DNA of 32,000 nucleotides from an uncultured Opitutales bacterium (GCA_934660865.1 CAKUIA010000006.1:60001-92000); one strand, 5' to 3'. Positions 4,145 through 32,000 are shown, counted from the stretch's first letter. Notes: generated by a model from the sequence alone, not told the origin. A program made the numbers and translations.

Positions 4145-4232
<88 letters not shown>

Positions 4233-7899: not shown

Positions 7900-8218
7900 T
7901 GTAAAGTTGTTAGTTCAATACGGTAACATTACGCAAAATTGAAATTACCATATCAAACATTGTAAAAAACCGTCAGTGATTCTCATATTGGAGATAATTG
8001 AGATTTATGTAAATCCAAATATTCGAATAAATGCAAGTATTCCAACAACCTATAATTCAGCGTGTTAAAAATCTAAATGCGGATAAATGAAAACTGAAAG
8101 ATAACTATCCTAGGTCTAGGTGCGACACGGGTTCAACAAAAAAACAAAGAACTCGGCGTTTCACCCAAAATACCAATCACCGCGTCGCTTCGGGGAAACG
8201 CATCGGACACGAAAAGCA

Positions 8219-8683
8219 ATGGAAACCATACGCGACTCTGCGGAATTGACGAATCGGGTTTTGCGCCTTGAAGAGGTAATCAGGGCGCAAAACGACCTGA
8301 TAGTCGATTTGACGGAGCGCATAGGAGAAACATTCGCGAAACAGGCTTTTTCGGTCAGGGATTTGACGAAGCGTTGGCAATGCTCGGAAACGTGCGTTAG
8401 GCGCATAGTTGAATCGCACAAGCTGAAACTGCTCAGAGGCCCTAACGGGCTTCCGCGTTCGCCCATTGCCGTGGTTCGTAGTTCGGTTCTCGACTACGAA
8501 AACGGAAACACGCTTCTTAAATTCCATAAAAGGAGAACGAAGCCCGCGCCCTCTTGGGCGGAAAATCCGTTTTTATCGACTCCGAAACTCCGTCCCGCAG
8601 TGTCCGACAGACGAGTTCGCAGATTGGGAGACCCTATATGCGAATCAGCTCAGGAAAAATCACCCGCCCACAAAAAGGCGTAA
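8219..8683 (+). CDS. HTH DNA-binding protein (excisionase/MerR-like), first gene of the rightward early operon
   Basis: The ORF track starts at GTG 8120; I prefer ATG 8219 (METIRDS...). Candidate HTH: FSVRDLTKRWQCSETCVRRIVESHKL. The C-terminal ~45 nt overlaps the next gene and looks low-complexity. Confidence 0.55.
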   Translation: METIRDSAELTNRVLRLEEVIRAQNDLIVDLTERIGETFAKQAFSVRDLTKRWQCSETCVRRIVESHKLKLLRGPNGLPRSPIAVVRSSVLDYENGNTLLKFHKRRTKPAPSWAENPFLSTPKLRPAVSDRRVRRLGDPICESAQEKSPAHKKA

Positions 8684-9642
8684 TTTACGGTTGCGAAGGT
8701 GTAGGCAAAAGCACATTCGCCTCAAAATTTCCGAATCCTGTTTTTATGGATTTGGAGGGAGGAACGGCTCAGCTGGACGTTAAGCGAGCCGAAGTTTCCT
8801 CTTGGGAGGAAATATTAACAACAATAGACGAACTCGCAAAAGCCCCTCAGGGCTTTGAAACGTTCGTGATGGACACCGCCGATTGGGCGGAACGTATGTG
8901 TTCGGCGTATTTGTGCAAGAAATACAAGAAAACGGGCATCGAAGATTTCGGATACGGCAAGGGCTACGCGTATCTTGCGGAGGAATTCGCCGCAATGCTT
9001 TCAAAGCTAACCGAACTTCAAAACAGCGGAATGCACGTTCTTGTCTTGGCGCATTCTACAATCCGCAAGCTCGAACTTCCCGAAGAAAACGGCACATACG
9101 ACCACTACGAATTGAAGTGCTCGAAAACCGTATCTCCCCTCGTCAAGGAATGGGCGGACGGACTTCTCTTTGCGAACTACCGCACATTCATTCAGGCGAA
9201 CGCAAACGGCAAAGGCAAGGCTGTCGGCGGGAAAGAGCGCGTTCTCTATACCGAACATACGGCGTTTTGCGACGCGAAAAACCGTTGGGGATTATCGGGC
9301 GTTCTTCCGCTTTCGTTTGAAAGCGTTGCAAATGTATTCGGTTCAAAAGTTCCCAAAACTTCAAAAGTATCAAACGAGGACGAATCGCAAACTTGGGGCA
9401 ATGTCGAAATCACCGACCCCAAAAAAGCGGACATCGCGCTGATTGAAACTGCGATGGAATTTTCCTCGGTGTCGCCCGACGAATTGAATGCGTATCTGCG
9501 CGGAGACAATCCAAGGGGCAAAAAGTTCGTCGCCGAAAACGAAACATACAAAGACCTCGACAGCGCAATTCTTGCGAAGATGGCGGAGGAAAAGAACTGG
9601 GATAAAGTCGAAGCCTACATTTCGGCAAGGAGGGGCAAATAA
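8638..9642 (+). CDS. AAA_24 / Sak4-like RecA-fold ATPase (phage recombination/replication)
   Basis: Walker A in VIYGCEGVGKSTFASKFPNPVFMDLEGG, and Walker B-like HVLVLAHS. ATG 8638 is preceded by GGGAGA at a 6-nt spacing. The TTG at 8554 in the ORF track is less likely to be the start. Confidence 0.8.
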   Translation: MRISSGKITRPQKGVIYGCEGVGKSTFASKFPNPVFMDLEGGTAQLDVKRAEVSSWEEILTTIDELAKAPQGFETFVMDTADWAERMCSAYLCKKYKKTGIEDFGYGKGYAYLAEEFAAMLSKLTELQNSGMHVLVLAHSTIRKLELPEENGTYDHYELKCSKTVSPLVKEWADGLLFANYRTFIQANANGKGKAVGGKERVLYTEHTAFCDAKNRWGLSGVLPLSFESVANVFGSKVPKTSKVSNEDESQTWGNVEITDPKKADIALIETAMEFSSVSPDELNAYLRGDNPRGKKFVAENETYKDLDSAILAKMAEEKNWDKVEAYISARRGK

Positions 9643-10079
9643 TGAATACTTCCGACCGCTTTGATTGGAATTCCGAAACCTCGCAGGAGGCAAAGGAATT
9701 TGTGCTTCTTCCCGAAAATACGGTAGTCGACTTTACTGTTGTGGGCTTTGAGCGCGCCACGACCGCCAAGGGCGACAATATGGCAAAGCTCACCCTGAAA
9801 TGCCGCGCAGCAGACGGACAGGAAGCCACGCTTCGCGAAAACTTGGTGCTTTTGCGCCGTTGCGAATGGCGCATCAACCAGTTTTTTACCTGCGTCGGGC
9901 TTCGCAAACACGGCGAACGTTCCGTTCCCAAGTGGAATTTGGTAAACGGCAGTTCGGGCAAAGCTCGGCTTGGCGTTGAAAGCTGGGAAGGCAAAGACGG
10001 CAAGACCTACGAAGGCAACATCATCAAGGACTATCTCGAACCCGAAGATAAGCCCGCAGACGATGAGGACATTTTCTAA
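9642..10079 (+). CDS. DUF669-like protein (usual partner of AAA_24 in phages)
   Basis: 145 aa. Its start overlaps the previous stop (TAATG). Size, position and pattern (FVLLPENTVVDFTVVGFE...TAKGDNMAKLTLKC) fit DUF669 as I remember it. Confidence 0.65.
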   Translation: MNTSDRFDWNSETSQEAKEFVLLPENTVVDFTVVGFERATTAKGDNMAKLTLKCRAADGQEATLRENLVLLRRCEWRINQFFTCVGLRKHGERSVPKWNLVNGSSGKARLGVESWEGKDGKTYEGNIIKDYLEPEDKPADDEDIF

Positions 10080-10091
10080 GGAAGGCGCGTT

Positions 10092-10724
10092 ATGGAAATC
10101 GTATTCAATATCGAAACGGCGGGACTTCCCAAAGACGAAATCCTCCATCTTATGCCCGAATTTTCAGCTCCGAGTAATTACAAGGACGCGGAAAAAATAC
10201 AGACATACAAGGCGAAAAAGCAGGAGGAATGGTTCTTGGACGCTGCGGGTTCGGCTTTGTCAGGAAAGGTTCTTGCAATAGCACTGCAAGAGCCTTGCAA
10301 AGACGTTGCATTCTTTGCCGACAATACGGACGAAACGCAGGTTCTTCAAAAGTTTTGGGACTTCTACCGAAACCACTGCGACTGCCGTTTTGTCGGCTTC
10401 GGGTGCAATTCGTTCGACATTCCGTTTCTCGTGAGGCGTTCGTGGTTAAATCGCGTCGTAGTGCCCAATATATTCCGCGGAAGATTCCTGAACGGAAATT
10501 TCGTAGACCTTTTGCAGGTTTGGGGTTGCGGAACGTCGGAACGCGCAACTCTTGCTAATTTGGCAAAATTCTTCGGACTAAAATACGAAGCTGTCCAGAC
10601 TCCGTTCGAGGCTTTGTGGAGTATTAGCCGACAAGCCGCGTTGGACGCGATGAGACGCGATATTTTGGCAATCCGCCGCGTAGGCGAAATTATGGGCGTT
10701 GTAGCCGAGGAGGATTTCCAATGA
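10092..10724 (+). CDS. RNase H-fold 3'-5' exonuclease-like protein (PolB-exonuclease-related family)
   Basis: SD AAGGAAGG lies upstream. The N-terminus IVFNIETAGLP corresponds to the Exo I motif, but reads N-I-E instead of D-x-E. Later motif: CNSFDIPFL. Confidence 0.65.
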   Translation: MEIVFNIETAGLPKDEILHLMPEFSAPSNYKDAEKIQTYKAKKQEEWFLDAAGSALSGKVLAIALQEPCKDVAFFADNTDETQVLQKFWDFYRNHCDCRFVGFGCNSFDIPFLVRRSWLNRVVVPNIFRGRFLNGNFVDLLQVWGCGTSERATLANLAKFFGLKYEAVQTPFEALWSISRQAALDAMRRDILAIRRVGEIMGVVAEEDFQ

Positions 10725-11191
10725 AAGTTGTCGCAGGAATAGACTCGGGCGTAAACGGCGGAATTTGTGTGTTGTATCCCGACAAGGCGGCTTATACCGC
10801 CCCTGTCGGCAACATAACGGAACTTCGCGACATTTTGTCGGCGGCGAAAAAATACGCCGACGGGAAAGCCTACATTCTCGAATGTTTTGTCGAGGAAGTA
10901 ACGGGCTACATCGGCGGGAAACCGCAGCCTGCAAGCCGTTCGTTTGTCTTGGGCAAGTCATACGGTTCTATTTTGGGACTACTTGTCGGAATGGAAATTC
11001 CGTTCCGCACGGTGCGCCCGCAAAAGTGGCAACTGGGGATTTCGGGCATACGCGCCGTCGAATATACAGCAAGAAAACGCAGGTTGAAGGAAATCGCAAC
11101 CCAACGCTATCCGCACTTGAAACCTACGCTTAAAACGGCGGACGCAATTCTCATAGCCGACTACGGAAGGAGCGTCTGTCATGGAGCTTAG
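10721..11191 (+). CDS. RuvC-like Holliday junction resolvase
   Basis: ATGA overlap with the upstream gene. N-terminal VVAGIDSGVNGGICVL and C-terminal TADAILIADYG resemble RuvC/phage resolvase catalytic motifs. Confidence 0.7.
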   Translation: MKVVAGIDSGVNGGICVLYPDKAAYTAPVGNITELRDILSAAKKYADGKAYILECFVEEVTGYIGGKPQPASRSFVLGKSYGSILGLLVGMEIPFRTVRPQKWQLGISGIRAVEYTARKRRLKEIATQRYPHLKPTLKTADAILIADYGRSVCHGA

Positions 11192-12716
11192 ACCCTACCA
11201 ACAAAAGGCGGTAGACGCTGTTTTCAATTCGTGGCGCGAGTTTTCCAAAACGCTGCTTGTTTTGCCGACGGGCACGGGTAAAACCGTCGTTTTCTCGAAA
11301 GTAGCAGAACGCGCGCTAAACGAGGGCGACGGGAAAATTCTTGTGCTCGCCCACCGCGAGGAATTGCTCACACAGGCGCGGGATAAAATCTACGCCGCGA
11401 CAAATCTTCCCTGCGCGTTTGAGAAAGCGGGCGAATCGTCGCTTGATTCGCTTGCGCCCATTACCTGCGCCTCGGTTCAAACGCTGATGCGCAAACCGCG
11501 CCTTAGCAGATTTTCTCCGCGACACTACGATACGATAATAGTGGACGAAGCCCACCACGCACTGAGCGATTCATATCAAAATATCTTGGGGTATTTTTCG
11601 TCCGCCCGCGTTCTGGGAGTTACGGCGACGCCCGATCGCGGAGACAAGCGCAACCTCGGAGCGTATTTTCAGGACATCGCCTTTGAATACTCGATAAGGG
11701 ACGCAATAAAGGAAAATTATCTCTCGAAGATTCTTGTAAAGACAGTTCCGCTTAAAATCTCGCTCGACGGCGTAAAGACTACGGCGGGCGACTTTTCAGC
11801 CGACGACTTGGGTTCTGCGATAGACCCGTATTTGGAGGAAATCGCAAAGCACATTCCCAAAGACCGCAAGACGTTGATATTTTTGCCACTTATTGCGACG
11901 TCTAAGCGTATGGCTCAGATTCTGCAATCTCTCGGGCACAAAGCCGAACATATCGACGGAACTTCGCCCGACAGGCGCGAAATTCTCGAACGTCTGCACA
12001 AGGGCGAATGCCGCGTTTTGTGCAATTCGATGCTGTTAACCGAAGGCTTCGACGAACCGAGCATAGACTGCATTGTCTGTCTGCGCCCGACAAAAATACG
12101 CTCTCTTTACGCCCAGATTGTCGGGCGCGGAACGCGCATTTGCGAAGGCAAAGACAACCTTCTTATCCTCGATTTTCTTTGGCAGACGACGCAACACGAC
12201 CTCTGCCACGCCTCTCATCTGATTGCCGAGAAGCGGGAAATCGCCGACAAGATGACCGAAATTGCCAACTTCGGCGGAACTTTCGACTTGGAAGAGCTTG
12301 AAGCCGACGCGAAAGACTCCGCGCGGCAGGAGCGCGAAGCGAGCCTTGTTTCGGCAATCAACGCCAACGTCAACAAAAAGTCGCGTCTAATCGACCCCAT
12401 CGAATACGCGCTTTCGATTCACGACGACGCGTTGGAGGATTATTCGCCGACCTTTGCTTGGGAGCGCGAAAAGCCGACCCAAAAGCAAATAGCCGTGCTT
12501 TCAAAGATGAAGTTCGACCCGAAAACAATCACGTCGCGCGGATACGCCGCAATGCTTCTAAACAAAATCATAGCCCGACGCGCGGCAAAACTTGCAACGC
12601 CAAGCCAGATAAAAACGCTCGAAAAATACGGCTATAACAACGTTCAGGAATATTCTTTCGAACAGGCTTCGAAGTGCATTTCGCAAATAGCAAACAACGG
12701 TTGGAGGCGCATATAA
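11181..12716 (+). CDS. Superfamily-2 DEAH-box helicase
   Basis: Motifs: Walker A LVLPTGTGKT, IIVDEAHHAL, GVTATPDR, and motif VI QIVGRGTR. SD GGAAGGAG lies upstream. Confidence 0.9.
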   Translation: MELRPYQQKAVDAVFNSWREFSKTLLVLPTGTGKTVVFSKVAERALNEGDGKILVLAHREELLTQARDKIYAATNLPCAFEKAGESSLDSLAPITCASVQTLMRKPRLSRFSPRHYDTIIVDEAHHALSDSYQNILGYFSSARVLGVTATPDRGDKRNLGAYFQDIAFEYSIRDAIKENYLSKILVKTVPLKISLDGVKTTAGDFSADDLGSAIDPYLEEIAKHIPKDRKTLIFLPLIATSKRMAQILQSLGHKAEHIDGTSPDRREILERLHKGECRVLCNSMLLTEGFDEPSIDCIVCLRPTKIRSLYAQIVGRGTRICEGKDNLLILDFLWQTTQHDLCHASHLIAEKREIADKMTEIANFGGTFDLEELEADAKDSARQEREASLVSAINANVNKKSRLIDPIEYALSIHDDALEDYSPTFAWEREKPTQKQIAVLSKMKFDPKTITSRGYAAMLLNKIIARRAAKLATPSQIKTLEKYGYNNVQEYSFEQASKCISQIANNGWRRI

Positions 12717-16095: not shown

Positions 16096-16166
16096 TGCAG
16101 GGTGGTCTAACGGTAGGACATCGGGCTCATAACCCGAGGATTGGCGGTTCGATTCCGCCCCCTGCA
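16096..16166 (+). tRNA. Phage-encoded tRNA-Met (anticodon CAT) with initiator-like anticodon stem; no encoded CCA
   Basis: Hand-folded. Acceptor TGCAGGG/CCCTGCA (U1:A72). D-arm GTCT-AACGGTA-GGAC. Anticodon arm TCGGG-CTCATAA-CCCGA, with three consecutive G:C pairs as in tRNA-fMet. T-arm GGCGG-TTCGATT-CCGCC. Confidence 0.9.
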
Positions 16167-16170
16167 TTTT

Positions 16171-16608
16171 CTATTCTTCAATATATTTTCTTTTTCTTAA
16201 TTCATTAAATTCTAACTCAGTCCATGGTTTAACATAGAGCGATTTAATGTAGTTTGAATTTGTGTTACTTTCGAGATTATCAATAGCTTTAATAGAAATA
16301 TTCCACCCAATCGCAATATTTGCAGTGAGTGGAATCAATTTACCAGAGGCTAATTCCAGCGAAAAACGACCGATTTTAATTTTAGCTCCTTTTAATAATT
16401 TTTTAGAAAAGGTTGGGTCTATTTTGTTTAAAATATCAGAAATATCTGTTCCATCGAAATTTTTTTTGCTAGGGACTAAAAGTAGAATTTCTGCGATTTC
16501 TTCCCCTGGATTGTCTTCTTCAATCTTTTTTAGAATCTGTAACAAGTCGGTATAATTACCAGTACCAAAAGAACCATCACCTTTAAAAACAAATTTATTT
16601 ATAATCAT
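16171..16608 (-). CDS. Hypothetical protein (145 aa), AT-rich antisense insert (moron)
   Basis: ORF with SD AAAGGAA and its own strong promoter. It has low GC, lies opposite to the phage operons, and sits directly after the phage tRNA. No recognisable domain. Confidence 0.65.
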   Translation of the reverse strand: MIINKFVFKGDGSFGTGNYTDLLQILKKIEEDNPGEEIAEILLLVPSKKNFDGTDISDILNKIDPTFSKKLLKGAKIKIGRFSLELASGKLIPLTANIAIGWNISIKAIDNLESNTNSNYIKSLYVKPWTELEFNELRKRKYIEE

Positions 16609-19295: not shown

Positions 19296-19321
19296 TTTTG
19301 ACACTTCCGCCGTTATATATG
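19294..19321 (+). repeat. Junction motif copy: AATTTTGACA-N15-ATG (ParB-like gene)
   Basis: TAATTTTGACACTTCCGCCGTTATATATGG. Near-identical to the copy at 22712-22741. Confidence 0.45.
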
Positions 19322-19957
19322 GCAGAAGACAAAGCACGCATTTTGGCGGACGGAATTGAAGTTTGGTGCGCCTACGACAAACTCGTAAAGGTTGACGAAC
19401 TTATTCCCCACCCGAAAAATCCCAACACCCACCCGCAAAACCAGATAAAGATTCTGGCGCAGAATATCCGCTACCACGGTTGGCGGCACCCGATTGTGGT
19501 TTCAAAACTTTCTGGCTACATTGTGGCTGGACACGGCAGACTCGAAGCCGCGAAAGAATTGGGCGTTTCAATCGTCCCCGTAGAATTTCAAAAATTTTCT
19601 TCCGAAGACAACGAACTTGCCGTTCTTGTCGGCGACAACCGCTTGGCGGAGCTTTCGAGCATAGACCTAAACGGGCTTCAAGACATCGTAGACGGTTTCA
19701 AGGAGACGAGCTTCGATACAATCTTGGCAGGTTTTGAACCAGCCGATTTGGACGCTCTGCTTGACGAAAAAACTCCCGATTTTGAAGACGAAGCCGAAAG
19801 GGAGCTTACCCAATCGGAAGTTACAATTCAGGCTGGGAACTATCGATTCCGCATAAGTCAGGAAGATTTCGGTGTATGGATTGACAAATTAAAGCAGGAA
19901 GTCGGCTTCGACAAGGAATCGGTAATTGCCGAACTTCGCAGGAGGCTTTCCATATGA
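19319..19957 (+). CDS. ParB-like N-terminal (ParB/Srx-fold) domain protein
   Basis: I prefer ATG 19319 over the TTG 19298 in the track. ParB-like core: ELIPHPKNPNTHPQNQIKILAQNIRYHGWRHPIVVSKLSGYIVAGHGRLEAAKELG. No SD; preceded by the junction motif. Confidence 0.8.
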   Translation: MAEDKARILADGIEVWCAYDKLVKVDELIPHPKNPNTHPQNQIKILAQNIRYHGWRHPIVVSKLSGYIVAGHGRLEAAKELGVSIVPVEFQKFSSEDNELAVLVGDNRLAELSSIDLNGLQDIVDGFKETSFDTILAGFEPADLDALLDEKTPDFEDEAERELTQSEVTIQAGNYRFRISQEDFGVWIDKLKQEVGFDKESVIAELRRRLSI

Positions 19958-21465
19958 TAAAAATTGAGCCTCTTTCGGCGGTAAACCCGTCGACCTACAA
20001 CCCGCGAACCGCCGACCCGAAGCGGCTTGATTTGATTGAGCTTTCGCTTCGCAAATTGGGATTCATTGCGCCGATATATGCCGACGCAAACGGCGAAATT
20101 CTTTCGGGGCACCAACGCCATTTTGTGGCAACGCGAATGGGCGTAAAAAACGTTCCAGTTTTCAGGATTCCGCCGATGGAATTGGAGAAGCGCAAGGCGT
20201 TGAACATTGTCTTTAACCGCGCCACTAACGACGGCGACATTTGCCAGACACCAGAAAAGGCTAAGCGCATTCTGGAAAGTCTAAATCTCTCGGAACTCGC
20301 CGAAAATATTCAAGACAAGGAGTTGGAGAGCAGAGACTTTTTCAGATGCGCCTACCCTGCGAAGGTGTCGGTTGCAAAACTTTGCAGGATAAATTCGGGA
20401 CGATGGATTCAATACGCAAAGAGCATTGCCAGAACACTTCGCAAGGCTGGAATTGTTATGCCGATTGTCTGCACGCCAGACGGCAAAGTTATAAACGGAA
20501 TCGGAAGACTCGAAATGCTTGCCGAACTCAAAGTAGATACTTGCGATGTGGTCTACATTTCCGAAGACGAGGCGAAATTTGCCGACGCTATGATGAACCT
20601 GCTTACGATGGAGTTCGACATTCACACGCGCTACGCCGATTTGCTCCGCTATAATTCGTTCCGACGCGCCCGCAGAGTTCGCGAAGAATTGGGACACGGC
20701 TTTGTGTTCGCCGTTCACGGGAATAAGCCCTGCCACAGTTTCGATATTTTCGATAAGTCGCAACAGGCGAAATGGCGCAAGGAGCACGGAAATTCAATTC
20801 TCGACTTCGGCGCGGGACACCTTACGGAGACGAACATTTTGAAGTCTGCGGGCTTTGATTGTGTTCCGTTTGAGCCGTATCACATAAGCGTTTCCGAAAT
20901 CGACAAGGAAAAGTCGCTTGAGATTTCGAGGGAATTTCTAAACGCCGTCGCAAATGGCAAGGAATTTACAAGCATATTCATTTCAAGCGTGTTAAACTCA
21001 GTTCCTTTCGCAAGGGATAGAGAACACATAGTTTGCATTTGCGCCGCGTTGTGTCGTCCGTTTACAAAACTCTACGCCTGCGCTTCGTCGACGGCAGAAA
21101 CCGGTTATAGGCAGGTAAACGGCAAGGCATTTCATAATGAATCGAATGCGGGCAATATAGCGTTTCGCCTTGAATACGAATCGGGAGTTCGCATTGGCGA
21201 CTTTCAGGACAAGCCGAAAGTCCAGAAATACCACACAAAAAAGGAATTCTACGAACTCTTTTCGCCGTTTTTTAGAAACATTCAGATTTCGGAAATGACG
21301 GGCAACGTAAACGCCAAATGCGAAAACGTCAGACGCATTCCGTGGGAACGCCTCGAAGAAGCGTTGAGATTTGAATTCAATCTGCCTTATCCCGACGGCT
21401 CTCGTATGGGATTGGTAGACGAGGCAATTTCGGCATTCAAACACCGCTATGAAATACTTGGTTGA
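19954..21465 (+). CDS. Fusion protein: two ParB-like domains plus a C-terminal class-I SAM-dependent methyltransferase domain
   Basis: First ParB-like domain: NPRTADPKRLDLIELSLRKLGFIAPIYADANGEILSGHQRHFVA. Second, degenerate copy: MPIVCTPDGKVINGIGRLEMLAELK. Methyltransferase motif I ILDFGAGHLTE, then FEPY and IFISSVLNSVP. No (D/N/S)PP(Y/F) amino-methyltransferase motif is seen. Confidence 0.8.
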   Translation: MIKIEPLSAVNPSTYNPRTADPKRLDLIELSLRKLGFIAPIYADANGEILSGHQRHFVATRMGVKNVPVFRIPPMELEKRKALNIVFNRATNDGDICQTPEKAKRILESLNLSELAENIQDKELESRDFFRCAYPAKVSVAKLCRINSGRWIQYAKSIARTLRKAGIVMPIVCTPDGKVINGIGRLEMLAELKVDTCDVVYISEDEAKFADAMMNLLTMEFDIHTRYADLLRYNSFRRARRVREELGHGFVFAVHGNKPCHSFDIFDKSQQAKWRKEHGNSILDFGAGHLTETNILKSAGFDCVPFEPYHISVSEIDKEKSLEISREFLNAVANGKEFTSIFISSVLNSVPFARDREHIVCICAALCRPFTKLYACASSTAETGYRQVNGKAFHNESNAGNIAFRLEYESGVRIGDFQDKPKVQKYHTKKEFYELFSPFFRNIQISEMTGNVNAKCENVRRIPWERLEEALRFEFNLPYPDGSRMGLVDEAISAFKHRYEILG

Positions 21466-22066: not shown

Positions 22067-22714
22067 ATGAATTCTTCGCTCATACTTACTGGCTATCACG
22101 GTTGCGATATAACTACGGCATATGACGTTGTTCTGGACGGACGTTTGAATCCGAGTCGAAACACATACGACTGGCTTGGGAATGGCGTTTATTTTTGGGA
22201 AGACGATATTGAAAGAGCCTATGACTGGGCAAAATACGTTTCGGCGAATCCCAAACTTTTTCACAACAAAATAGAACATCCTTGTGTTGTCGGCGCGGTA
22301 ATCGAGTTGAAAAACCATCTTGATTTGACTATTTCAAGCGCAAGGCAGGTCGTAAGAGAAGCATACAACAACATTTCGGAAATCTACGCCGAAAAGGGTT
22401 TGGAATTGCCCAAAAATCGCAAATCGTCAAAAGGCGATGACTATTTGAAGATTCGCGAACTCGACTGCTTGGTTATAAATTCGATAAACGAGTTTAGAAA
22501 AGCCAAGAAAGAACCGCTTATTGATGTCGTTCGAGCTCCGTTTTTGGAGGGTGAACCTCTATACGCAGGGGCTTCTTTTATGAACGAGACTCATATCCAA
22601 ATTTGCGTAAAAGATCTCTCCGCAATTAGGGGATATTTTATTCCGCCGCAATTCAAGAGTATGTTTAAGAACGCAAAAATTCCGAATTGGGATAAGGTTC
22701 TCGGGGAATATTAA
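22067..22714 (+). CDS. DUF3990-like protein (unknown function)
   Basis: 215 aa. The ordered motifs GYHGC, DWLGNGVYFWEDDIERAYDWAK, IDVVRAPFLEGEP and ETHIQICV resemble the DUF3990 pattern I recall (YHGS ... DFGxGFY ... A..WA ... D-h-V-x-G-P ... QI). Confidence 0.55.
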   Translation: MNSSLILTGYHGCDITTAYDVVLDGRLNPSRNTYDWLGNGVYFWEDDIERAYDWAKYVSANPKLFHNKIEHPCVVGAVIELKNHLDLTISSARQVVREAYNNISEIYAEKGLELPKNRKSSKGDDYLKIRELDCLVINSINEFRKAKKEPLIDVVRAPFLEGEPLYAGASFMNETHIQICVKDLSAIRGYFIPPQFKSMFKNAKIPNWDKVLGEY

Positions 22715-22740
22715 ATTTTGACATTCCGCCGTCTTGTATG
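22713..22740 (+). repeat. Junction motif copy: AAATTTTGACA-N14-ATG (CmoA-like gene)
   Basis: TAAATTTTGACATTCCGCCGTCTTGTATGG. TTGACA at 22718-22723, ATG at 22738. Confidence 0.45.
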
Positions 22741-23433
22741 GAATTGCATACGGACGACAGGATTATTTCGCGACAGAGCAACTGGGTGTTCGACGAACAC
22801 GTCGCGCCCGAATTCGACAAGCACGTCAGAAAGAGCGTGCCCAATTACGTTCACGTTCAGGATTTGGCGGAGACATTTTCCGACTGGTTCACATACCCCA
22901 ATTCGACTGTAATCGACTTCGGGGCTTCCACAGGCGAAACCCTGCGCAGGATAAAACGCCGCCATTCGAAAACGATCCACCTCATAGGCTACGACAATTC
23001 GCAGGCGATGATAAATCAGGCGAAAACAAAAGGCGTAGACATCATTTTTGCCGACCTCGAAAAGCCGTTTGTTCTGCCCAATTTTTCCTACGCAGTTTCG
23101 CTTTACACATTGCAATTCCTGCGCCCAGACGCGCGGAACGCGCTGTTAAAGCGCATATTCCACAGCCTTGAAAATTGCGGCGGAATGTTTGTCGTCGAAA
23201 AAGTTCTCGGCTCAACATCGCAAATGCAGGACATTTTGCAACAGCTCTATTGGGAAATGAAGGCAAAGAACGGCTTTTCGTCAGAACAAATCATCAACAA
23301 GGCGAAAGCCCTGCGCGGGTGTATGTATCCCAAAACCGTAGCCGACAACGAAGCGGAATTCCGCGCAATCGGGTTCAATTCGGAAATAGTTTTCAAAGAA
23401 TCGCAGTTCTGCGGTTGGCTGCTTACGAAATGA
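22738..23433 (+). CDS. CmoA-family SAM-dependent enzyme (carboxy-SAM synthase-like)
   Basis: 231 aa with end-to-end similarity to E. coli CmoA as I remember it. Matching segments: NWVFDEHVAPEFDKHVRKSVPNY, VIDFGASTGE, GYDNSQAMINQAK, YTLQFLRPDARNALLKRIF, GGMFVVEKV, KAKNGFSSEQII, and the final FKESQFCGWLL. Its stop overlaps the terL start (ATGA). Confidence 0.75.
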   Translation: MELHTDDRIISRQSNWVFDEHVAPEFDKHVRKSVPNYVHVQDLAETFSDWFTYPNSTVIDFGASTGETLRRIKRRHSKTIHLIGYDNSQAMINQAKTKGVDIIFADLEKPFVLPNFSYAVSLYTLQFLRPDARNALLKRIFHSLENCGGMFVVEKVLGSTSQMQDILQQLYWEMKAKNGFSSEQIINKAKALRGCMYPKTVADNEAEFRAIGFNSEIVFKESQFCGWLLTK

Positions 23434-25211
23434 AGCTTCTTCGGGATATTCTCAAAGACGCTTGGACGCCCGCCGACCGCCGAGAGCCTTGGCGTTGGTG
23501 CGAAGACCATATAAAAAGCATTCCGTATTCGCCGCTTCCAGGACCGTTCAGAAGCGAAAACTCGCCGTGGATTCGCGAAGTTATGGAGGCAATCGTTGAC
23601 CCGAAAATCCGCCTTGTCTCGATTATCGCCGCCGTCCAAAGCTCGAAGACTACAAGTCCCGAGCTTACGCTTTGCTACATAATAGCCAACCTCCCAGGAC
23701 CTTGCCTTTGGCTCGACCAGACGGACGAAGACGCAAAAGACGAGTCGGAAAGCCGCCTGCAAAAGCTTTTTGAGAGCTGCGAGCCGGTAAAAAAGCTATT
23801 TCCAAAGAACAAAAATAAACAGCGCAACTGCACAATCCACTTTTCAAACGGAATGACGCTTTGGCTGCTGGGAGCGTATAACAAGACCAATCTCCAACGC
23901 CGTTCAATCCGCTGGCTTTTCGGAGACGAAACTTGGCGATGGCCAGTCGGACATATGGCGGAAGCGGAGGCAAGAACTACGGCTTTCGGGTGGCTCGGCA
24001 AATGCGTGTTTATGAGTCAAGGCGGAGAGGAGAACGACGACACCCACCGCAAATTTGAAACAACCGATATGCGCGAATGGCACTACAAGTGTCCCAAATG
24101 CGGCAAATACATTCCCTACAAGTGGGAAAACATCGAGTGGGACGACGACTGCAAAGACGAAAACGGCGAATACGACTTTTCAAAAATCAACCATTCAACA
24201 GCCTTGAAATGTCCCGAATGCGGGGAGTATTTTGAGGATTCCGACAGAATGAGGCGCATTCTCAACAAGGACGGAAAGTTTATCGCGCTCAATCCGAATG
24301 CTTCAAAAGAAAACGTGGGCTTCCATTGGAATGCGCTCGCTTCGATGAGTTGGGGCAAGCTTGCCGAGCTTTACCTTCGCGCGAAAATTGCCGCAAGAAA
24401 GGGCGACAGCTCTTTGCTGCAACAATTCTACCAGAAACGCCTTGCTCTTGCTTGGAGGGAATTTGCCGAAGACTACCGCCTTGAAATCGCCTCTGGCAGC
24501 TATAATTCGGGGGACGTTTGGGATGAGGAAGCGGGCTTCAACAAGCTCGGTGAAATCATCGCCCCGCCTTTTGCCGAAAACGAGGTTATCGCGCCGCTTC
24601 GCATAATGTCGGTTGATGTTCAGATGAACTGCTTTTACTTGGTTGTCCGCGCTTGGAGCATTAACGGTTCGAGTCGTCTTCTATGGCACGAAAAGGTACT
24701 GACGTGGGAAGACATCGAGGAAATCCAAAAGCGTTTTAAAATTTTGGACAACCTTGTATTTGTCGACGCGGGGTATAATTCGTTTGAAGTCTACAAGCAT
24801 TGCGGGGAGCGGAATTGGATTGCGCTTATGGGCGACAACAGGGCGAACTTCTTTCACAGACTTCCGAACGGCAAGACGGTTTTGCGCTTTTACTCTCCCG
24901 TAAAGCACATATTTATTTCGCGCTACGTTAAGTGCCGTATGCACTTTTGGAGCAACCTCAACGTAAAAGACACTTTGGCGAGAATCAGGCGAAACCAGAA
25001 TCCTGCCGACGGCGCAACTTGGGAAGTGCCGACGGATATTTCCGAAGACTACTTAAAGCAAATGGAGTCCGAACACCGCATTAAAAAGGGCAACTCGTGG
25101 ATATGGGAGCAAATCGGCAACCGCCCCAACCACTACCTCGACTGCGAAGCTATGAACTGCGCAGGAGCGTTGATGTTGAAGATTGTGGGGAACAATGGTT
25201 TATATAGTTAA
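23430..25211 (+). CDS. terL: Terminase large subunit, lambda GpA family
   Basis: Start ATG 23430 (MKLLRDILKDAW...). The upstream ORF extension overlaps the CmoA-like gene and is rejected. GpA-type features: REPWRWCEDHIKSIPYSPLPGPFRSENSPWIREVMEAI, an ATPase segment AAVQSSKTT, and a zinc-ribbon YKCPKCGKY ... LKCPECGEYF. Confidence 0.9.
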   Translation: MKLLRDILKDAWTPADRREPWRWCEDHIKSIPYSPLPGPFRSENSPWIREVMEAIVDPKIRLVSIIAAVQSSKTTSPELTLCYIIANLPGPCLWLDQTDEDAKDESESRLQKLFESCEPVKKLFPKNKNKQRNCTIHFSNGMTLWLLGAYNKTNLQRRSIRWLFGDETWRWPVGHMAEAEARTTAFGWLGKCVFMSQGGEENDDTHRKFETTDMREWHYKCPKCGKYIPYKWENIEWDDDCKDENGEYDFSKINHSTALKCPECGEYFEDSDRMRRILNKDGKFIALNPNASKENVGFHWNALASMSWGKLAELYLRAKIAARKGDSSLLQQFYQKRLALAWREFAEDYRLEIASGSYNSGDVWDEEAGFNKLGEIIAPPFAENEVIAPLRIMSVDVQMNCFYLVVRAWSINGSSRLLWHEKVLTWEDIEEIQKRFKILDNLVFVDAGYNSFEVYKHCGERNWIALMGDNRANFFHRLPNGKTVLRFYSPVKHIFISRYVKCRMHFWSNLNVKDTLARIRRNQNPADGATWEVPTDISEDYLKQMESEHRIKKGNSWIWEQIGNRPNHYLDCEAMNCAGALMLKIVGNNGLYS

Positions 25212-26437
25212 ATAATTTCTCCTCGAAAATAATCTTTTATTATTTTTATATATTTATTTGGGATTCCTAGCCTTTCTCTAAACAAATTTTTCACAGGTAC
25301 AGGATTTGGATTTAATATGATTATATTTGGATATTTAGTCTTTTTGCAAAAAGCCTTTTTTAATAAATCAATTGCTCTTATATCAGTGATGGGGAAAGAG
25401 TATCCAATTACATATATTGATTCTGCTTTACTTAAATCAGATTCAGCATATTCCCATAAATTTTTAAATAATTTGCCCCAAAAATTATAACTTTTATTTT
25501 TGACTGGAGGGATAATCAGTGGAGTACTTGGCATTCCATCACTAGGATAATTACTTTCAGGAATCCAAGGAAATTTCGGTCTTACCCTGATAATAAGCCG
25601 ATCTTTAGGTGCTGTTTTTCCTTTGTCTGATAAAATATTTGGGGGATAATATCCCATAGAAAAAGGAGCATATCCTTCCATATATCTACCCGCGTACGCA
25701 GGATAAGGTTTAGTTGCGTATTCATATATCCAAACTGAATCATTTGGAGATTCTTGTATTAGTTTAAAATCTTTTGCTTCTTGATCATAGTACATAGGAG
25801 AAGTGAGCCAATTTGTTGAGCCATGTAACTTTATTAATTTTGGGGATTGTTTGAAGCTGTTTTGAGGCAACAGCCATTTATCTCGATATATACCACAAGG
25901 CGAAAAACCATATCCAAAGTCTGTTTCCCAATCAGTATCTTCTTGTAAGGCTCGATCCAATAAAGTATCCCAATTAAATGTTATTATAGTATCATCTGTA
26001 TTTATTTTTTTTAAAAATAATCTATGTGCTTTTGATGTTGGTCCATTTTGAATTTCATTTATAATCGATGAAAAAAAATAAACCAATTGTTGATAAGTTT
26101 TTGTCAATATAAGCAACTCGCTGGAAATATGTTCGCAATTTTGATCCTTTTCAATTAAGGTAAGCATTTTATATTCAATCGCAGAGTGAATTTTCTCAAT
26201 ATCTAAATCTCCTTTAAAAACTGATTCGATAGGAACATTTCTGGTCTTATGTAAATAATTCACGATGTCACCGATTATAACCCAAGGGTTTTGTGATATA
26301 TTTAATTTTTCAAAGGTAGAAAAAACCTCTGTTGCCAATGGCATTTTTTGACCAGATAAGGATTCACCATAAGACTTAGATGCTCCAGCTCCCAATATAT
26401 ATACATTCATTTCATTATTTAAGTTCAATGGATACAT
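25208..26437 (-). CDS. SIR2-like (SIR2_2 / ThsA-type NADase fold) protein, standalone, AT-rich insert
   Basis: Ordered signature: VYILGAGASKSYG; IITFNWDTLLDRAL; LIKLHGSTNW; IYVIGYSFPITDIRAIDLL. The start is ambiguous (ATG at 26485, 26437 or 26410). There are 20 G+C in line 25261-25320. Confidence 0.8.
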   Translation of the reverse strand: MYPLNLNNEMNVYILGAGASKSYGESLSGQKMPLATEVFSTFEKLNISQNPWVIIGDIVNYLHKTRNVPIESVFKGDLDIEKIHSAIEYKMLTLIEKDQNCEHISSELLILTKTYQQLVYFFSSIINEIQNGPTSKAHRLFLKKINTDDTIITFNWDTLLDRALQEDTDWETDFGYGFSPCGIYRDKWLLPQNSFKQSPKLIKLHGSTNWLTSPMYYDQEAKDFKLIQESPNDSVWIYEYATKPYPAYAGRYMEGYAPFSMGYYPPNILSDKGKTAPKDRLIIRVRPKFPWIPESNYPSDGMPSTPLIIPPVKNKSYNFWGKLFKNLWEYAESDLSKAESIYVIGYSFPITDIRAIDLLKKAFCKKTKYPNIIILNPNPVPVKNLFRERLGIPNKYIKIIKDYFRGEII

Positions 26438-26451
26438 GTAAATTACTCGAA

Positions 26452-26480
26452 TTTTTTTGACAAGTTTTATTCTTATCATG
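26452..26480 (+). repeat. Junction motif copy: TTTTTTTGACA-N15-ATG (gpW-like gene)
   Basis: TTGACA at 26457-26462, ATG at 26478. No SD. Confidence 0.4.
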
Positions 26481-26735
26481 TCCAATTACATTTACACACG
26501 CGGGTATACTGTGGCGGAGCTTGAGGCTTTGCTTGTTCGGGTAAAAGCCGAGCGCGAAAAGTATCTTCAATCGGCTTCCGATAGCGGAAGCTCGTATTCA
26601 CGCATCGCGCTTTCGGAAATCGAGAAGAAGTTCAACGGCATAATGGACGCGTTGGAGCTTCTCGCGCCCGAAAAATACCCCAAAACAAACCGCCGAATTT
26701 CCCTTAGCGGCGTAGTAGGAGGAGTTATCCAATGA
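26478..26735 (+). CDS. gpW-like head-tail joining protein (by position and size)
   Basis: 85 aa from ATG 26478. It lies between terL and portal, as lambda W does. Its stop overlaps the portal start (ATGA). No SD; the junction motif lies upstream. Confidence 0.5.
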   Translation: MSNYIYTRGYTVAELEALLVRVKAEREKYLQSASDSGSSYSRIALSEIEKKFNGIMDALELLAPEKYPKTNRRISLSGVVGGVIQ

Positions 26736-28147
26736 CGCTACGGAGGAAAATCGCCAATATGTTCTACGGAATCGGGCACGCGTTCGAGTCTGCAAAGGTT
26801 TCGCTTTCGCGCGGCAACCCAAACACGCTGAACCCTACGGACGCGAGCGCGGAACTGCCCTCATGCACAAGAAGCGAACTTGTCCGCAAAGCCAGATACC
26901 TCGAAAAGAATTCGGGGCACATTCGTGGAATTCTGCGCGATTTGAAAGTCTACGGAATCGGCAAGGGAATCTACCCTAACGCGAAATCCGACAACCACGC
27001 TTGGAATAAGCAGGCGGAGGATTTCTTCTTCAAATGGAGCAGACATTGCGACATCACAAACCGCTTTTCTTGGCGCGAATGCCAGTCGATGATTCTGCGC
27101 GCGCTTATCGTCGACGGCGAAATCTTCGTAATAAAAACATTCGACAGCTTCGGCGTTCCCAAAATCCAGCTAATAGAAAGCCACCGCCTAATGTCGCCAA
27201 GCGACTCTGATAGCGGGCGCATTGTTGACGGAATGGAGTTCGACAAATTCGGGAGGGTTAAAAATTACTACTTCGTTGTAGGCGATGATTCGCAAACCAC
27301 CAAAGTTCCCGCAAACGCAGTTTTGCATATCTTCGATCCTGAACGCGTTTCGCAGGCGCGGGCTTACCCGCAAATTCAACATTCGATAAACGACGTAATC
27401 GACAGAAAGGAAATTCTCGCTCTCGAAAAAAAGAAAGTGAAGGCGATTTCCGACATCGTCCATATCCTGAAAGGCGGTCAGGGAATGACGCTTGACGGAG
27501 ACTATAAAGTTGACGTAGGCAACCGCCCAGAGGGCACGTCTACGGCAACACTAAACCGAATATTGGGTGGCAAAAATATCCGAATCGACCCCGACGAAAG
27601 CATAGACGTTCACGAAAGCAATACTCCGTCTCCCACATTTTCGGGCTTTTTGACGGAACTTGACCGTTCTGGAAGTCTCGGCGTTCTCCCCTACGAATTT
27701 GTCATAGACCCGTCGAAAATCGGCGGAGCTTCGGTGCGTCTCATTGCCTCGAAAACACAACGATACATCGACGACATCGCGCAAATCATAGACGAACGCT
27801 TCAACGATGCCGTATGGTTCTTCGTTATCGGCTGGGCAATCGACAGCGGAACTTTACCCGCCCAAAATTGGTGGTGGTATTGCTCTTGGACTCACCCGCG
27901 CAAACTCACCGTCGACGCGGGACGAGAGGAACAGCAAAACCGCGCAAATGTCGAAATGGGCTTGAAGACGCTCGAAGAAAGCTTCGCCGAATGCGGGCAG
28001 GATTTCGAGGACGAAATGCGCACGCGCGCCGACAACGCCCGCTTCATTATGCGCTTGGCTGGAATCCCCGACAGCGAGCCGATTCCGCTTTATATGCTCT
28101 ACAAGGTAAACGGCACACAGGTAATCGAAAAATCCGATGACAAATAA
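26732..28147 (+). CDS. Portal protein, lambda (gpB) family
   Basis: 471 aa. The N-terminal region SELVRKARYLEKNSGHIRGILRDLKVYGIGKGIYP is typical of Phage_portal_2 as I recall it. It sits between terL/W and the S49 protease. Confidence 0.85.
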   Translation: MTLRRKIANMFYGIGHAFESAKVSLSRGNPNTLNPTDASAELPSCTRSELVRKARYLEKNSGHIRGILRDLKVYGIGKGIYPNAKSDNHAWNKQAEDFFFKWSRHCDITNRFSWRECQSMILRALIVDGEIFVIKTFDSFGVPKIQLIESHRLMSPSDSDSGRIVDGMEFDKFGRVKNYYFVVGDDSQTTKVPANAVLHIFDPERVSQARAYPQIQHSINDVIDRKEILALEKKKVKAISDIVHILKGGQGMTLDGDYKVDVGNRPEGTSTATLNRILGGKNIRIDPDESIDVHESNTPSPTFSGFLTELDRSGSLGVLPYEFVIDPSKIGGASVRLIASKTQRYIDDIAQIIDERFNDAVWFFVIGWAIDSGTLPAQNWWWYCSWTHPRKLTVDAGREEQQNRANVEMGLKTLEESFAECGQDFEDEMRTRADNARFIMRLAGIPDSEPIPLYMLYKVNGTQVIEKSDDK

Positions 28148-30861: not shown

Positions 30862-31320
30862 CTATGATACTCGAAAGTTTTTCGCAGAAGTTGGTGTAAT
30901 CTGAAATATAATCCCATCGTGCCTAATCAAATACAGCACATTTAGGGAGTCATTTGTTATTAGAATATCGTCCGATGATGGATACCAAATATACTTAAAA
31001 TAGTCGCAGAAATCCGCATAATTAAAAATATCCATAGGGCATTCATAACCCCATATAACGATTATATTATCGGATTGGTCAGATAGTAGATTCAAAGACT
31101 TGATAGAAAAGTCTTCTGATGTTGCGTCCGTATTTTCAATATATTTTCCAGCTTCCTGAACTTTGTTAAAATCAGATATATCTAAATTATAACGCAACGA
31201 CAGTTTTCTTGTAATCGATTCGCTTTCCTTTTTTGATAATGTATTGAATGAAGGAAATTTCGATTGTGTTTCATTTTCAAATATTGAAATTTTGAATGAG
31301 TCCACTCTTCTTATCCCCAA
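30862..31320 (-). CDS. Hypothetical protein (~147-152 aa), AT-rich, third gene after the PIN toxin
   Basis: There is no ATG start. Candidates are TTG 31320 or GTG 31305; the GTG is preceded by GGGGA at 8 nt. C-terminal motif: FCDYFKYIWYPSSDDILITNDSLNVLYLIRHDG. It lies 12 nt downstream of the PIN gene stop. Confidence 0.5.
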   Translation of the reverse strand: MGIRRVDSFKISIFENETQSKFPSFNTLSKKESESITRKLSLRYNLDISDFNKVQEAGKYIENTDATSEDFSIKSLNLLSDQSDNIIVIWGYECPMDIFNYADFCDYFKYIWYPSSDDILITNDSLNVLYLIRHDGIIFQITPTSAKNFRVS

Positions 31321-31332: not shown

Positions 31333-31734
31333 TTACAAAAACTCCAACGCTTCGGCGGGAGAAAGAACCGTTATGCCGAGCTTTTTCATAAGCGGTTTGG
31401 GATAGTGTTTTGCATTTCCCGTAACGATTATTTTATCCTGCGTTGCAAGTGCCGCTTCTATGAAAATTTTGTCGTCAATATCGGGAAGTTCTTCGGAAAT
31501 ATGCACGGGTTCTATCGGGTCAGTTCCCATTAAATCCACAAGAAATATGTTTACGCATTCCTCGGTGAGGTGAAATCGCGGGCGGGACAAAACTTCGAGA
31601 TATTCGCAGATTATTCGGTTGTCGTAAACCGCTGTAAAATTTTCGCCCATTTTCGACATCAGCAAATGCGGCGAACCGTTTGTGCTCAAAAACGCCGAAA
31701 CAACGACATTTGTATCAATTACAAAAGTCTTCAT
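31333..31734 (-). CDS. PIN-domain toxin (VapC-like, PIN_3 type)
   Basis: The N-terminus MKTFVIDTNVVVSAFL holds the first acidic PIN residue. Later motifs: DIDDKIFIEAAL and IIVTGNAKHY. It overlaps the upstream antitoxin by 4 nt. Confidence 0.85.
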   Translation of the reverse strand: MKTFVIDTNVVVSAFLSTNGSPHLLMSKMGENFTAVYDNRIICEYLEVLSRPRFHLTEECVNIFLVDLMGTDPIEPVHISEELPDIDDKIFIEAALATQDKIIVTGNAKHYPKPLMKKLGITVLSPAEALEFL

Positions 31735-32000
31735 TTTCTGTTCTTGCGTTCTTTTCTCGCTGCGGCGATTTCGGCGTCAATTTCCTCCATCGTCATATTG
31801 GAAGTTCCGTTCTTTACCGCGCGCATTTGGCTACGCAAGAGCATTTGCTTGAATTTCATATGAACGACAGCGCGGATATCGGGCAACAGAGTATCCTCCG
31901 TTGTCGATATTAGAATGGAACGCGGCTTGCCGTCCTTTGTGATGACTACGAACCCGCTTTTGTCGACTTCCTTCATAACCTTGCCCGAATTTGTGGCAAG
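31731..32000 (-). CDS. Phd/YefM-type antitoxin (N-terminus probably beyond the right edge)
   Basis: FVVITKDGKPRSILIS is the Phd/YefM core. The frame stays open upstream of Met 31976 to the window edge (LATNSGKV-M...). Confidence 0.7.
   Translation of the reverse strand, partial: LATNSGKVMKEVDKSGFVVITKDGKPRSILISTTEDTLLPDIRAVVHMKFKQMLLRSQMRAVKNGTSNMTMEEIDAEIAAARKERKNRK

Follow-up and report, generated by a model that had tools for sequence, protein, structure and literature searches.

A stand-alone SIR2-family gene as candidate anti-phage cargo at a variable terL/gpW junction of a putative Opitutales prophage

A preliminary description of a 32,000-nucleotide (nt) stretch of DNA from an uncultured Opitutales bacterium (GCA_934660865.1 CAKUIA010000006.1:60001-92000; hereafter the window) had pointed to a SIR2-like gene lying antisense between terL, which encodes the large terminase of a putative prophage, and the gene in gpW position that follows. 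We analyzed this gene, its predicted protein, its insertion site and its homologs in other genomes. The open reading frame (ORF) spans 25208..26485 on the minus strand and encodes 425 amino acids when counted from a TTG start; at the local base composition, the probability of meeting no stop over 425 codons is approximately 1e-16. The ORF call confirmed the extent of the frame and its orientation opposite to the packaging and head operon, in which it is the sole minus-strand gene. Because the TAA stop codon of terL occupies 25209-25211 and that of the SIR2 gene 25210-25208 (minus strand), the two ORFs share 4 nt, as had been described. The AT-richness of the segment was likewise reproduced, with 20 G+C in the 60-nt block 25261-25320 versus 29 in the block 24001-24060 of terL. 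In 500-nt windows the G+C content amounts to 0.29-0.36 over the SIR2 gene and approximately 0.48-0.53 on both sides, and the gene as a whole has a G+C content of 0.309 versus 0.488 for its flanks.

The frame described before thus stood, while the length of approximately 410-425 amino acids assigned to its product had to be revised at the start codon. Gene callers place the start at ATG 26437, which yields a protein of 409 amino acids (P0001) that is present in identical form on 3 contigs. Comparison with homologs indicates that translation almost certainly starts at ATG 26410 (MNVYILGAGAS), giving 400 amino acids: this position is matched exactly by 21 of 23 aligned homologs, the remaining two starting one residue earlier, and the common N-terminus of the homologs consists of Met followed by x-V-x-LLGAGAS.

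An AlphaFold model built with 24 homologs (pLDDT 89, pTM 0.90; residue numbers here and in Table 1 are those of P0001) shows a single domain composed of a Rossmann core, a helical small domain (residues ~35-142) and a beta-rich region after the putative catalytic His. A long, conserved and mostly irregular segment at residues ~241-304 has no regular secondary structure and is modelled with pLDDT values mostly between 83 and 94. When the model was compared with the PDB by Foldseek, every match with E <= 1e-3 was a SIR2 protein. The top seven matches were to PsSIR2 and the SIR2-HerA complex (1.8e-7 to 4e-6), followed by PfSir2A and DSR2; ThsA matched more weakly (2.6e-3 to 1.6e-2). The earlier assignment of the protein as SIR2_2/ThsA-like therefore holds for the fold, whereas the SIR2 protein of SIR2-HerA is closer than ThsA. 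In PDB sequence searches, PsSIR2 from the Paenibacillus SIR2-HerA system was the only protein reached, over the catalytic segment, with E = 0.13 for the single protein and 1.2e-3 for the family profile.

All four SIR2 motifs that had been listed are present in the order given (Table 1). The catalytic residues of PsSIR2 are N163, D165 and H212 (bioRxiv 10.1101/2023.11.13.566805). In the PDB sequence alignment, TFNWD pairs with TTNYD of PsSIR2 (N163 and D165; PDB 8w9l) and KLHGSTNW with KLHGSINW (H212), so that the proposed check of fold and catalytic alignment came out in favor of a SIR2 protein. A Tyr/Pro-rich insertion had also been noted; it is indeed present and, not being peculiar to this protein, proved to be a hallmark of the whole family. 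Its consensus, PY..AGRY..GY..S.GYYPPN, is the most conserved feature outside the catalytic motifs, and a variant, R.GY..F.Y..PPN, is retained in the distant relatives P0272, P0281 and P0293. This loop is a candidate sensor, lid or oligomer interface. A Zn-binding Cys4 module is absent: the protein contains three Cys, none of them in a CxxC pair and none conserved.

Among profile libraries, the 'SIR2' models of PADLOC matched with E-values down to 1.9e-10, in an alignment that spans the VIGYSFPITD region. The Pfam family SIR2_2 (PF13289) scored 19.7 bits, under its gathering cut-off of 24.5, and many homologs carry a precomputed PF13289 match, of 'faint' strength where this is given. By these scores the family is a clade at the fringe of what the Pfam model covers. 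NCBIfam and PHROGs gave no match, and no further Pfam or PADLOC domain (SLOG, Macro, STAND, repeat sensor or ABC-3C) was detected in the protein. Together, model and alignments identify the product as a predicted SIR2_2/'SIRim'-fold protein with conserved Asn/Asp/His and Rossmann motifs.

At its left end the window consists of host DNA, in which a 637-amino acid flank protein has its nearest named relatives in metagenome-assembled genomes of Opitutales (Verrucomicrobiota; 36-44% identity). The host flank is followed by a tRNA-Ser gene, an integrase gene, replication genes (AAA_24, exonuclease, ResIII helicase and PriCT_2/AAA_25 primase), ParB-methyltransferase genes and a large terminase gene of the lambda gpA type, and the SIR2 gene in turn by an 85-amino acid gene, the portal gene and an S49 protease gene. 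Since host flank, tRNA-Ser, integrase, replication, packaging and head genes stand in this succession, the element is read from its sequence as an integrated temperate phage of a Verrucomicrobia-like host.

A search of IMG/VR with terL yielded 80 loci, nine of which have a terL 87-95% identical to that of the window; eight of these nine include the junction between terL and the gene in gpW position. The junction is empty in four sister phages (L095, L096, L097 and L098; terL 90-91% identical), where 24-28 nt separate the terL stop from the next ATG. In the four others, gaps of 410 nt (L092), 1,211 nt (L094), 822 nt (L099) and 929 nt (L100), with 27-34% G+C, each hold one gene antisense to terL (Table 1). 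The SIR2 gene was not found in any of the eight. Because the site is empty in four sisters and occupied by other cargo in four others, the terL/gpW junction is a variable cargo hotspot, previously undescribed, with five alternative cargos including SIR2, all of them antisense and AT-rich. The view of the SIR2 gene as an insertion between terL and the next gene is thereby borne out. In comparison with the empty sites of L095, L096 and L098, similarity is lost somewhere in the ~6 final codons of terL and returns at TTTGACA before the next ATG, which places the approximate ends of the inserted cassette at these breaks (Table 1). A nucleotide search with the terL-portal region gave no match in 50,697 phage records.

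Table 1. Coordinates of the SIR2-family gene, its motifs, the borders of the insertion site and the alternative cargos of sister phages
Feature	Position	Strand	Evidence and remarks
Stand-alone SIR2-family gene	25208..26410	-	400 amino acids; stop 25208-25210; alternative starts ATG 26437 (409 amino acids), TTG 26485 (425 amino acids)
Rossmann NAD-binding loop VYILGAGASKSYG	26366..26404	-	G16, A17, G18, A19, S20, K21 invariant in 24 homologs
TFNWDTLLDRAL, putative catalytic Asn and Asp	25946..25981	-	aligned to PsSIR2 N163/D165; invariant in family alignment
KLHGSTNW, putative catalytic His	25808..25831	-	aligned to PsSIR2 H212; K, L, H, G, S, N, W invariant
Tyr/Pro-rich loop PYPAYAGRYMEGYAPFSMGYYPPNIL, family-specific	25631..25708	-	P244, Y245, G250, R251, Y256, G262, Y263, Y264, P265, N267 invariant
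VIGYSFPITD, second Rossmann half-motif (GYS...D), typical of SIR2_2	25382..25411	-	G345, Y346, S347, F348, P349, T351, D352 invariant
AT-rich inserted cassette, approximate	25193..26452	.	junction comparison, gap sizes, G+C profile
terL, large terminase (lambda gpA type), left hotspot border	23397..25211	+	Pfam GpA_ATPase 1.9e-39, GpA_nuclease 2.3e-20
85-amino acid gene in gpW position, right hotspot border	26478..26735	+	no Pfam match; 67-96% identity in sister phages, directly before portal
Portal protein	26732..28147	+	Phage_portal_2 (precomputed Pfam)
L092 cargo, 114-amino acid Zn-ribbon/coiled-coil protein		antisense	
L094 cargo, 359-amino acid trypsin-like protease		antisense	weak matches only
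L099 cargo, 281-amino acid ThsB-like TIR	6802-7647 (in L099)	-	PADLOC ThsB 6.4e-58
L100 cargo, 303-amino acid Mrr_cat nuclease		antisense	Pfam 9e-9

The organization of the junction recalls the hotspots of P2 and P4 prophages and satellites, for which uncharacterized cargo with a SIR2 domain has been reported (Rousset et al. 2022; PMC9122126). Both have a fixed phage junction with mutually exclusive, AT-rich cargo of defence type. The site described here differs in belonging to a lineage with lambda-gpA-type terminase and a Verrucomicrobia-like host, in its position between terL and the gpW-position gene, and in accepting single antisense genes. Two observations concern the sister phages themselves. 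In L095, L096 and L098 a 7-bp inverted repeat (ATTCGCC...GGCGAAT) directly follows TTTGACA and spans the start codon of the gene in gpW position; the window (26453-26480), where the SIR2 cassette abuts TTTGACA, has lost it. The repeat may form a regulatory hairpin or serve as a landmark for recombination. In L099 the ThsB-like TIR is the sole cargo of the hotspot and apparently an orphan, a lone ThsB being as unexpected as a lone SIR2. A tblastn search of the 11.8 kb of L099 found no homolog of the window SIR2 protein; ThsA itself was not searched for.

Homologs of the SIR2 protein were collected at two levels. A word-indexed search returned 1,185 clusters (90% identity level) at E <= 1e-3. 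The best 120 of these are nearly all 396-437 amino acids long, with 42-53% identity; the family motifs (GAGASK, TFNWD, KLHGS and GYSFPxTD) are kept, and the family is spread over about a dozen phyla. An exhaustive profile search gave 118 representative clusters (50% level) at E <= 1e-30 and 9,270 SIR2_2-like clusters at E <= 1e-3. For the analysis of gene neighborhoods, 80 genome loci and 4 viral loci from IMG/VR were fetched, and ORFs within 5 kb were clustered by BLASTP. A plasmid search yielded one full-length match, in Rhizobium. Complete E. coli genomes contained nothing that matched the Enterobacter homolog at the DNA level. As an observation on more remote relatives, the rare proteins P0259 (689 amino acids), P0281 (537 amino acids) and P0293 (595 amino acids) carry N- or C-terminal extensions of 140-290 amino acids on a full SIR2 module, which could point to sensor domains in sister clades.

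Several homologs occupy prophages or islands. In L090, a lambda-like but unrelated phage with ~63% G+C, a 4.4-kb island of 30-40% G+C lies between terL and portal (~7700-12200) and contains, on the strand opposite to the head genes, a SIR2 homolog (34% identity), together with a convergent 674-amino acid gene for which PDB sequences gave no match; a site of the same type seems to have been used independently here. In L091 the homolog is found beside terL, between ParB-methyltransferase and terminase genes. In a lambdoid prophage of Enterobacter hormaechei (P0014) it has the icd attachment site on one side and lambda-type integrase/excisionase genes on the other; in a Vibrio alginolyticus prophage (P0052) it lies between the integrase gene and the cI/YdaS/YdaT region, and in another Enterobacter (P0048) at the end of an island with two integrases and a DUF927 primase. 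A Providencia homolog (P0101) stands beside Hachiman (HamA and helicase) and gtr genes, and one homolog adjoins an Avs2-like gene. Scanning the 110 nearest neighbors of 59 loci revealed LmuB (4), AbiH (2), SoFic (2), PDC-S04 (2), QatC and DndF, as well as type II methyltransferases and restriction endonucleases, PD-Lambda-5_B, HSDR_N, DDE transposases and a lambda-type integrase arm domain. In L009 the homolog is immediately preceded by LmuB, and in L074 and L077 a spacing of 10 nt separates the two. L074 comprises a complete Lamassu operon (LmuA, PDB 9nxx, 2.5e-12; a 167-amino acid gene; LmuB), with the SIR2 gene starting 10 nt after it, and the whole is flanked by restriction-modification and transposition genes. 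A 12-fold enrichment of the SIR2_2/'SIRim' clade near defence systems has been published (bioRxiv 10.1101/2024.09.18.613514). In 43 of 50 non-redundant loci the G+C content of the SIR2-family gene is below that of its flanks (median -6.5 points; Wilcoxon p = 1.6e-10). Prophage and island contexts and a G+C content below the flanks are characteristic of accessory genes that move horizontally.

The gene had further been called an orphan, with no partner nearby. Library scans of the window detected no HerA/DUF87, pAgo/Piwi, TIR, STAND, SLOG or LmuA-type module, and a tblastn search of the window with the ThsB-like protein of L099 found nothing. When the loci were sorted into 67 groups (SIR2 <85% identical between groups), no neighbor family occurred in more than 5 of them; the recurrent ones were ABC ATPases, SDR dehydrogenases and integrases, with DNA polymerase I confined to Terriglobia. 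HerA, Piwi, TIR and STAND were absent from the first 25 neighbor families by member count in the set of 110 nearest neighbors of 59 loci. Because no conserved neighbor emerged from the 67 groups or from the 59-locus scan, the family is stand-alone, often in the company of defence systems; the orphan status is thus upheld, and the possibility that homologs always keep a partner gene is not what was found. Independence from HerA fits with the absence of a HerA gene combined with the apparent absence of the N-terminal extension of HerA-type SIR2 profiles: the protein begins at the first Rossmann beta-strand, and the PADLOC SIR2 profiles reach ~24-43 positions further towards the N-terminus.

Three candidate partners were considered and rejected. 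A 369-amino acid gene upstream of the SIR2 gene in Enterobacter has no counterpart in the window and does not occur in the other enterobacterial, Providencia and Vibrio loci examined; that a second AT-rich island of the window (5628-7899) also contains an ORF of 369 amino acids is a coincidence. This second island itself is confined to the present phage group and never found beside other SIR2-family loci. The same-strand upstream genes of 600-700 amino acids are not uniformly HerA or LmuB: those of L009 and L074/L077 are LmuB, and the others are unrelated.

We then compared the protein with characterized systems. The best structural match, and the only one by PDB sequence or profile, is the SIR2 protein of SIR2-HerA (GAO_19/Nezha; PsSIR2, PDB 8w9l and 8wld; Foldseek 1.8e-7). 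PsSIR2 has 381 amino acids versus 400 here, both consist of a single SIR2 domain with a helical small domain, and the Asn/Asp/His positions are the same. The two differ in that they share ~15% identity, no HerA gene accompanies the present gene, the N-terminal extension appears to be absent at the place of the HerA-docking helix of PsSIR2, and the window protein has a family-specific Tyr/Pro-rich/beta insert of ~90 residues. DSR1 and DSR2 resemble what is proposed here, i.e. single-gene SIR2 NADase defence with direct sensing of a phage protein, and their SIR2 domain matches the model (6e-5 to 1e-3). However, they comprise ~1,000 amino acids with MID and C-terminal tail-tube-binding sensor regions, whereas the 400 amino acids of the window protein fold as one SIR2 domain, in agreement with the earlier remark that it is too short for DSR1 or DSR2. 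ThsA of type I Thoeris has a SIR2_2-type fold and the same order of motifs, but the window protein lacks a SLOG or Macro domain and no ThsB is encoded in the window, a ThsB-like gene being found only as the cargo of L099. Canonical CobB/Sir2 deacylases differ by their Zn-binding Cys4 module. For SPARSA, a weak PADLOC match to Aga_SIR2 covers the catalytic segment only (2.3e-5), and a Piwi gene was found neither in the window nor in the neighbor families listed. The fused STAND NTPase or repeat sensor of Avs5/SIR2-STAND and the C-terminal ABC-3C domain of SIR2-type LmuA from Lamassu are missing, and the operon of L074 has a LmuA of its own. The window protein thus has the defining architecture of none of SIR2-HerA, Thoeris, DSR, SPARSA, Avs5 or Lamassu-SIR2. 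By analogy, it would work most like DSR-type single-gene SIR2 defence and look most like the SIR2 of SIR2-HerA. No validated stand-alone SIR2 system of ~400 amino acids was found in the literature.

Two further comparisons concern proteins of similar size. Vertebrate FAM118A and FAM118B are stand-alone SIR2_2 proteins regulated through self-assembly, with FAM118B requiring FAM118A for appreciable NAD processing (PMC12700824). They are alike in length (~350 amino acids) and in having neither Zn module nor fused sensor, but form a eukaryotic paralog pair and are not among the top 50 Foldseek matches. AbiH of Lactococcus (PF14253) is also a single gene, of ~310-350 amino acids, and an AbiH-family neighbor in L038 shows the motifs GNGFD, TFNYT, HIHG and GFSFSxxD in parallel order. 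Profile comparison with this neighbor gave no support for a relationship (hhalign probability 1.3%); AbiH presumably belongs to the SIR2 clan. A true relationship would make AbiH an earlier example of a SIR2-like Abi protein that acts alone.

Taking these data together, we consider it rather probable that the gene encodes an autonomous, auto-inhibited SIR2 NADase, carried as exchangeable prophage cargo and acting in abortive infection or superinfection exclusion. This functional reading rests on genomic context; activity, trigger and protection are candidate properties. In the lysogen, a promoter of its own would drive the SIR2 gene in the direction opposite to the late operon, and its product would be held inactive by the helical small domain blocking the NAD+ pocket, as in PsSIR2 and ThsA. 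Upon infection by another phage, a phage-derived cue would be sensed by the SIR2 protein itself, possibly via the Tyr/Pro-rich loop and the beta-rich insert; activation would probably be accompanied by a change of oligomeric state, as in DSR2, ThsA, Avs5 and FAM118B, and the active enzyme would hydrolyze NAD+, so that the infected cell is stopped. From these analogies we infer that auto-inhibition would be relieved on activation, and that activation would consist in recognition of a phage component together with a change in assembly state; the Tyr/Pro loop or the beta insert would, hypothetically, be the sensor or switch. A more far-reaching version, to which we subscribe only tentatively, is that of a minimal autonomous SIR2 immune protein in which one domain of ~400 amino acids both senses and kills, with the Tyr/Pro loop and beta insert, absent from solved SIR2 structures, serving as a built-in sensor or assembly switch.

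A number of findings weigh against an autonomous defensive NADase. A constitutive NADase with neither a recognizable sensor domain nor an antitoxin requires that a control mechanism be assumed. The Foldseek TM-scores are modest, and sequence similarity to characterized SIR2 proteins is marginal. A scan for promoters and terminators around the gene gave counts at chance level; the sole promoter-like site upstream, TTTACA-17-AATAAT at 26442-26414, is not above chance and is not relied on here. A search with the SIR2 protein gave no match among 50,697 isolated phage records, and four IMG/VR contigs are the only ones to carry the family. In four divergent groups of Terriglobia/Acidobacteriaceae (SIR2 <85% identical; L013, L020, L039, L043, L068 and L078) the gene follows polA immediately and on the same strand, the two overlapping by up to 22 nt or lying up to 155 nt apart, and in seven Algoriphagus species the gene is at least 85% identical and its flanks are conserved. 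Stable copies of this kind, passed on vertically, are not typical of defence genes, which tend to turn over fast.

The same stable copies, i.e. polA-SIR2 in the four Terriglobia groups and the conserved locus of Algoriphagus, would agree with a non-immune NAD+-dependent modifier or regulator (a deacylase, an ADP-ribosyltransferase or a slow NAD processor) with a role in physiology or lysogenic conversion. Deacylases and ADP-ribosyltransferases (SirTM) do belong to the SIR2 superfamily, and the Tyr/Pro loop could equally be a substrate-binding surface. However, the protein has no Cys4 module, its three Cys being non-conserved, and its best structure and profile matches are immune-type SIR2 proteins; moreover, the contexts of the family are mostly prophage ends, hotspots and defence islands, and the gene is compositionally foreign in most loci, the Terriglobia copies included, which are 8-9.5 G+C points below their flanks. 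We regard a non-immune role as unlikely. A similarly low probability is given to a split system, in which the SIR2 protein would be the effector half, with a partner encoded at another place in the host or by a different prophage; this partner could be a TIR or another enzyme that produces a signal, an ATPase resembling HerA or the Lamassu SMC machinery. The well-studied small SIR2 effectors all need a partner (SIR2-HerA, SPARSA and Thoeris), and so does FAM118B, which depends on its paralog (PMC12700824), but cooperating defence components are normally tightly linked, and no linked partner is found in at least 55 of the 59 representative loci. The LmuB genes adjacent to the homologs of L009 and L074/L077 point towards Lamassu as a partner, yet the Lamassu of L074 has its own LmuA effector; the apparently orphan ThsB-like TIR at the same hotspot of L099 points towards a TIR, yet the chain folds as one SIR2 domain, and ligand-binding domains of the SLOG, Macro, CARF or SAVED-like type are missing from it. 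The N-terminal HerA-docking extension appears to be absent as well.

As the gene is phage-borne and located beside packaging genes, and as phages are known to encode enzymes of NAD metabolism in the arms race with their hosts, a function in counter-defence was also weighed, whereby the protein would destroy NAD-derived immune signals or manipulate host NAD+ during lytic growth. The gene is, however, antisense to the late operon and therefore not co-expressed with the lytic genes, the family is overwhelmingly chromosomal (80 genome loci versus 4 viral contigs and no isolated phage), and other cargo at the junction is defence hardware (ThsB-like TIR and Mrr nuclease); we judge this role very improbable. 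Hardly credible, finally, is a decaying or inert passenger gene. Its AT-rich foreign DNA, the promoter counts at chance level and the occurrence of the exact protein on 3 contigs would agree with it, but a 400-codon frame is intact in DNA of 31% G+C (chance ~1e-16), all family-invariant residues are kept, and the model is confident over the full length.

The window contains further genes outside the junction. The tRNA-Ser gene (4145-4232) and the integrase gene (4493-5650) adjoin the second AT-rich island (5628-7899, minus strand; G+C 0.32-0.36), which consists of overlapping genes for proteins of 398 amino acids (6703-7899) and 369 amino acids (5628-6737) with no Pfam or PADLOC match and with 5 homolog clusters among 5.8 billion proteins. 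The pair is arranged alike in sister phages L173-L175, the 369-amino acid gene is frameshifted in L172, and an AlphaFold model (pLDDT 56) was too poor for use. This island is a candidate two-gene moron or defence module. A phage-borne tRNA-Met gene (16096-16167) is directly followed by an antisense ORF of 145 amino acids with a G+C content of 0.37 and no Pfam or PADLOC match (region 16096-16608). Two consecutive ParB_N genes occupy 19298-21465, the second being fused to a DNA methyltransferase (PADLOC MTase_II, 6.6e-19), and a further methyltransferase gene (22738-23433) lies just upstream of terL. A ParB-methyltransferase gene of similar type stands immediately before the SIR2 homolog of L091. 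Between the ParB_N genes and the methyltransferase gene of the window, at 22067-22714 (plus strand), a protein of 215 amino acids is encoded that weakly matches PD-T4-9_A of PADLOC (4.5e-6); its N-terminus (YHGCD...GNGVYFWED) presumably resembles ADP-ribosyltransferase/DUF3990-like motifs, and a 42%-identical homolog is found in L132 on the opposite strand, ~280 nt upstream of terL. Past the head genes, an AT-rich orphan ORF of 152 amino acids with no matches (30862-31320, minus strand) forms an antisense moron cluster with a PIN_3 toxin gene (31333-31734) and an overlapping antitoxin-like gene of 81 amino acids (31731-31976), both on the minus strand.

SIR2 NADases are among the commonest anti-phage effectors. 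To our knowledge, every characterized SIR2 NADase is coupled to a partner or to a large sensor region (HerA, pAgo, a TIR signal, STAND or the DSR C-terminus). SIR2 effectors and prophage hotspots are both established themes; what is unusual here is the minimal architecture, and a widespread, partner-less clade of ~400-amino acid proteins that comprises more than 1,100 clusters (90% identity) and is met repeatedly in defence islands and at moron sites of prophages would be new. Should the gene not be protective, it would be one more uncharacterized SIR2-like moron. Protection by the gene alone would reveal how a bare SIR2 domain stays silent and is switched on, and would add a very compact single-gene system to the known defences. 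If one SIR2 domain indeed both senses and kills, the junction would exchange single-domain orphan effectors (SIR2, ThsB-like TIR, Mrr nuclease and protease), and effector domains thought to depend on partners could work alone. The terL/gpW hotspot, with at least five antisense cargos, is a source of candidate genes in a poorly studied host phylum.

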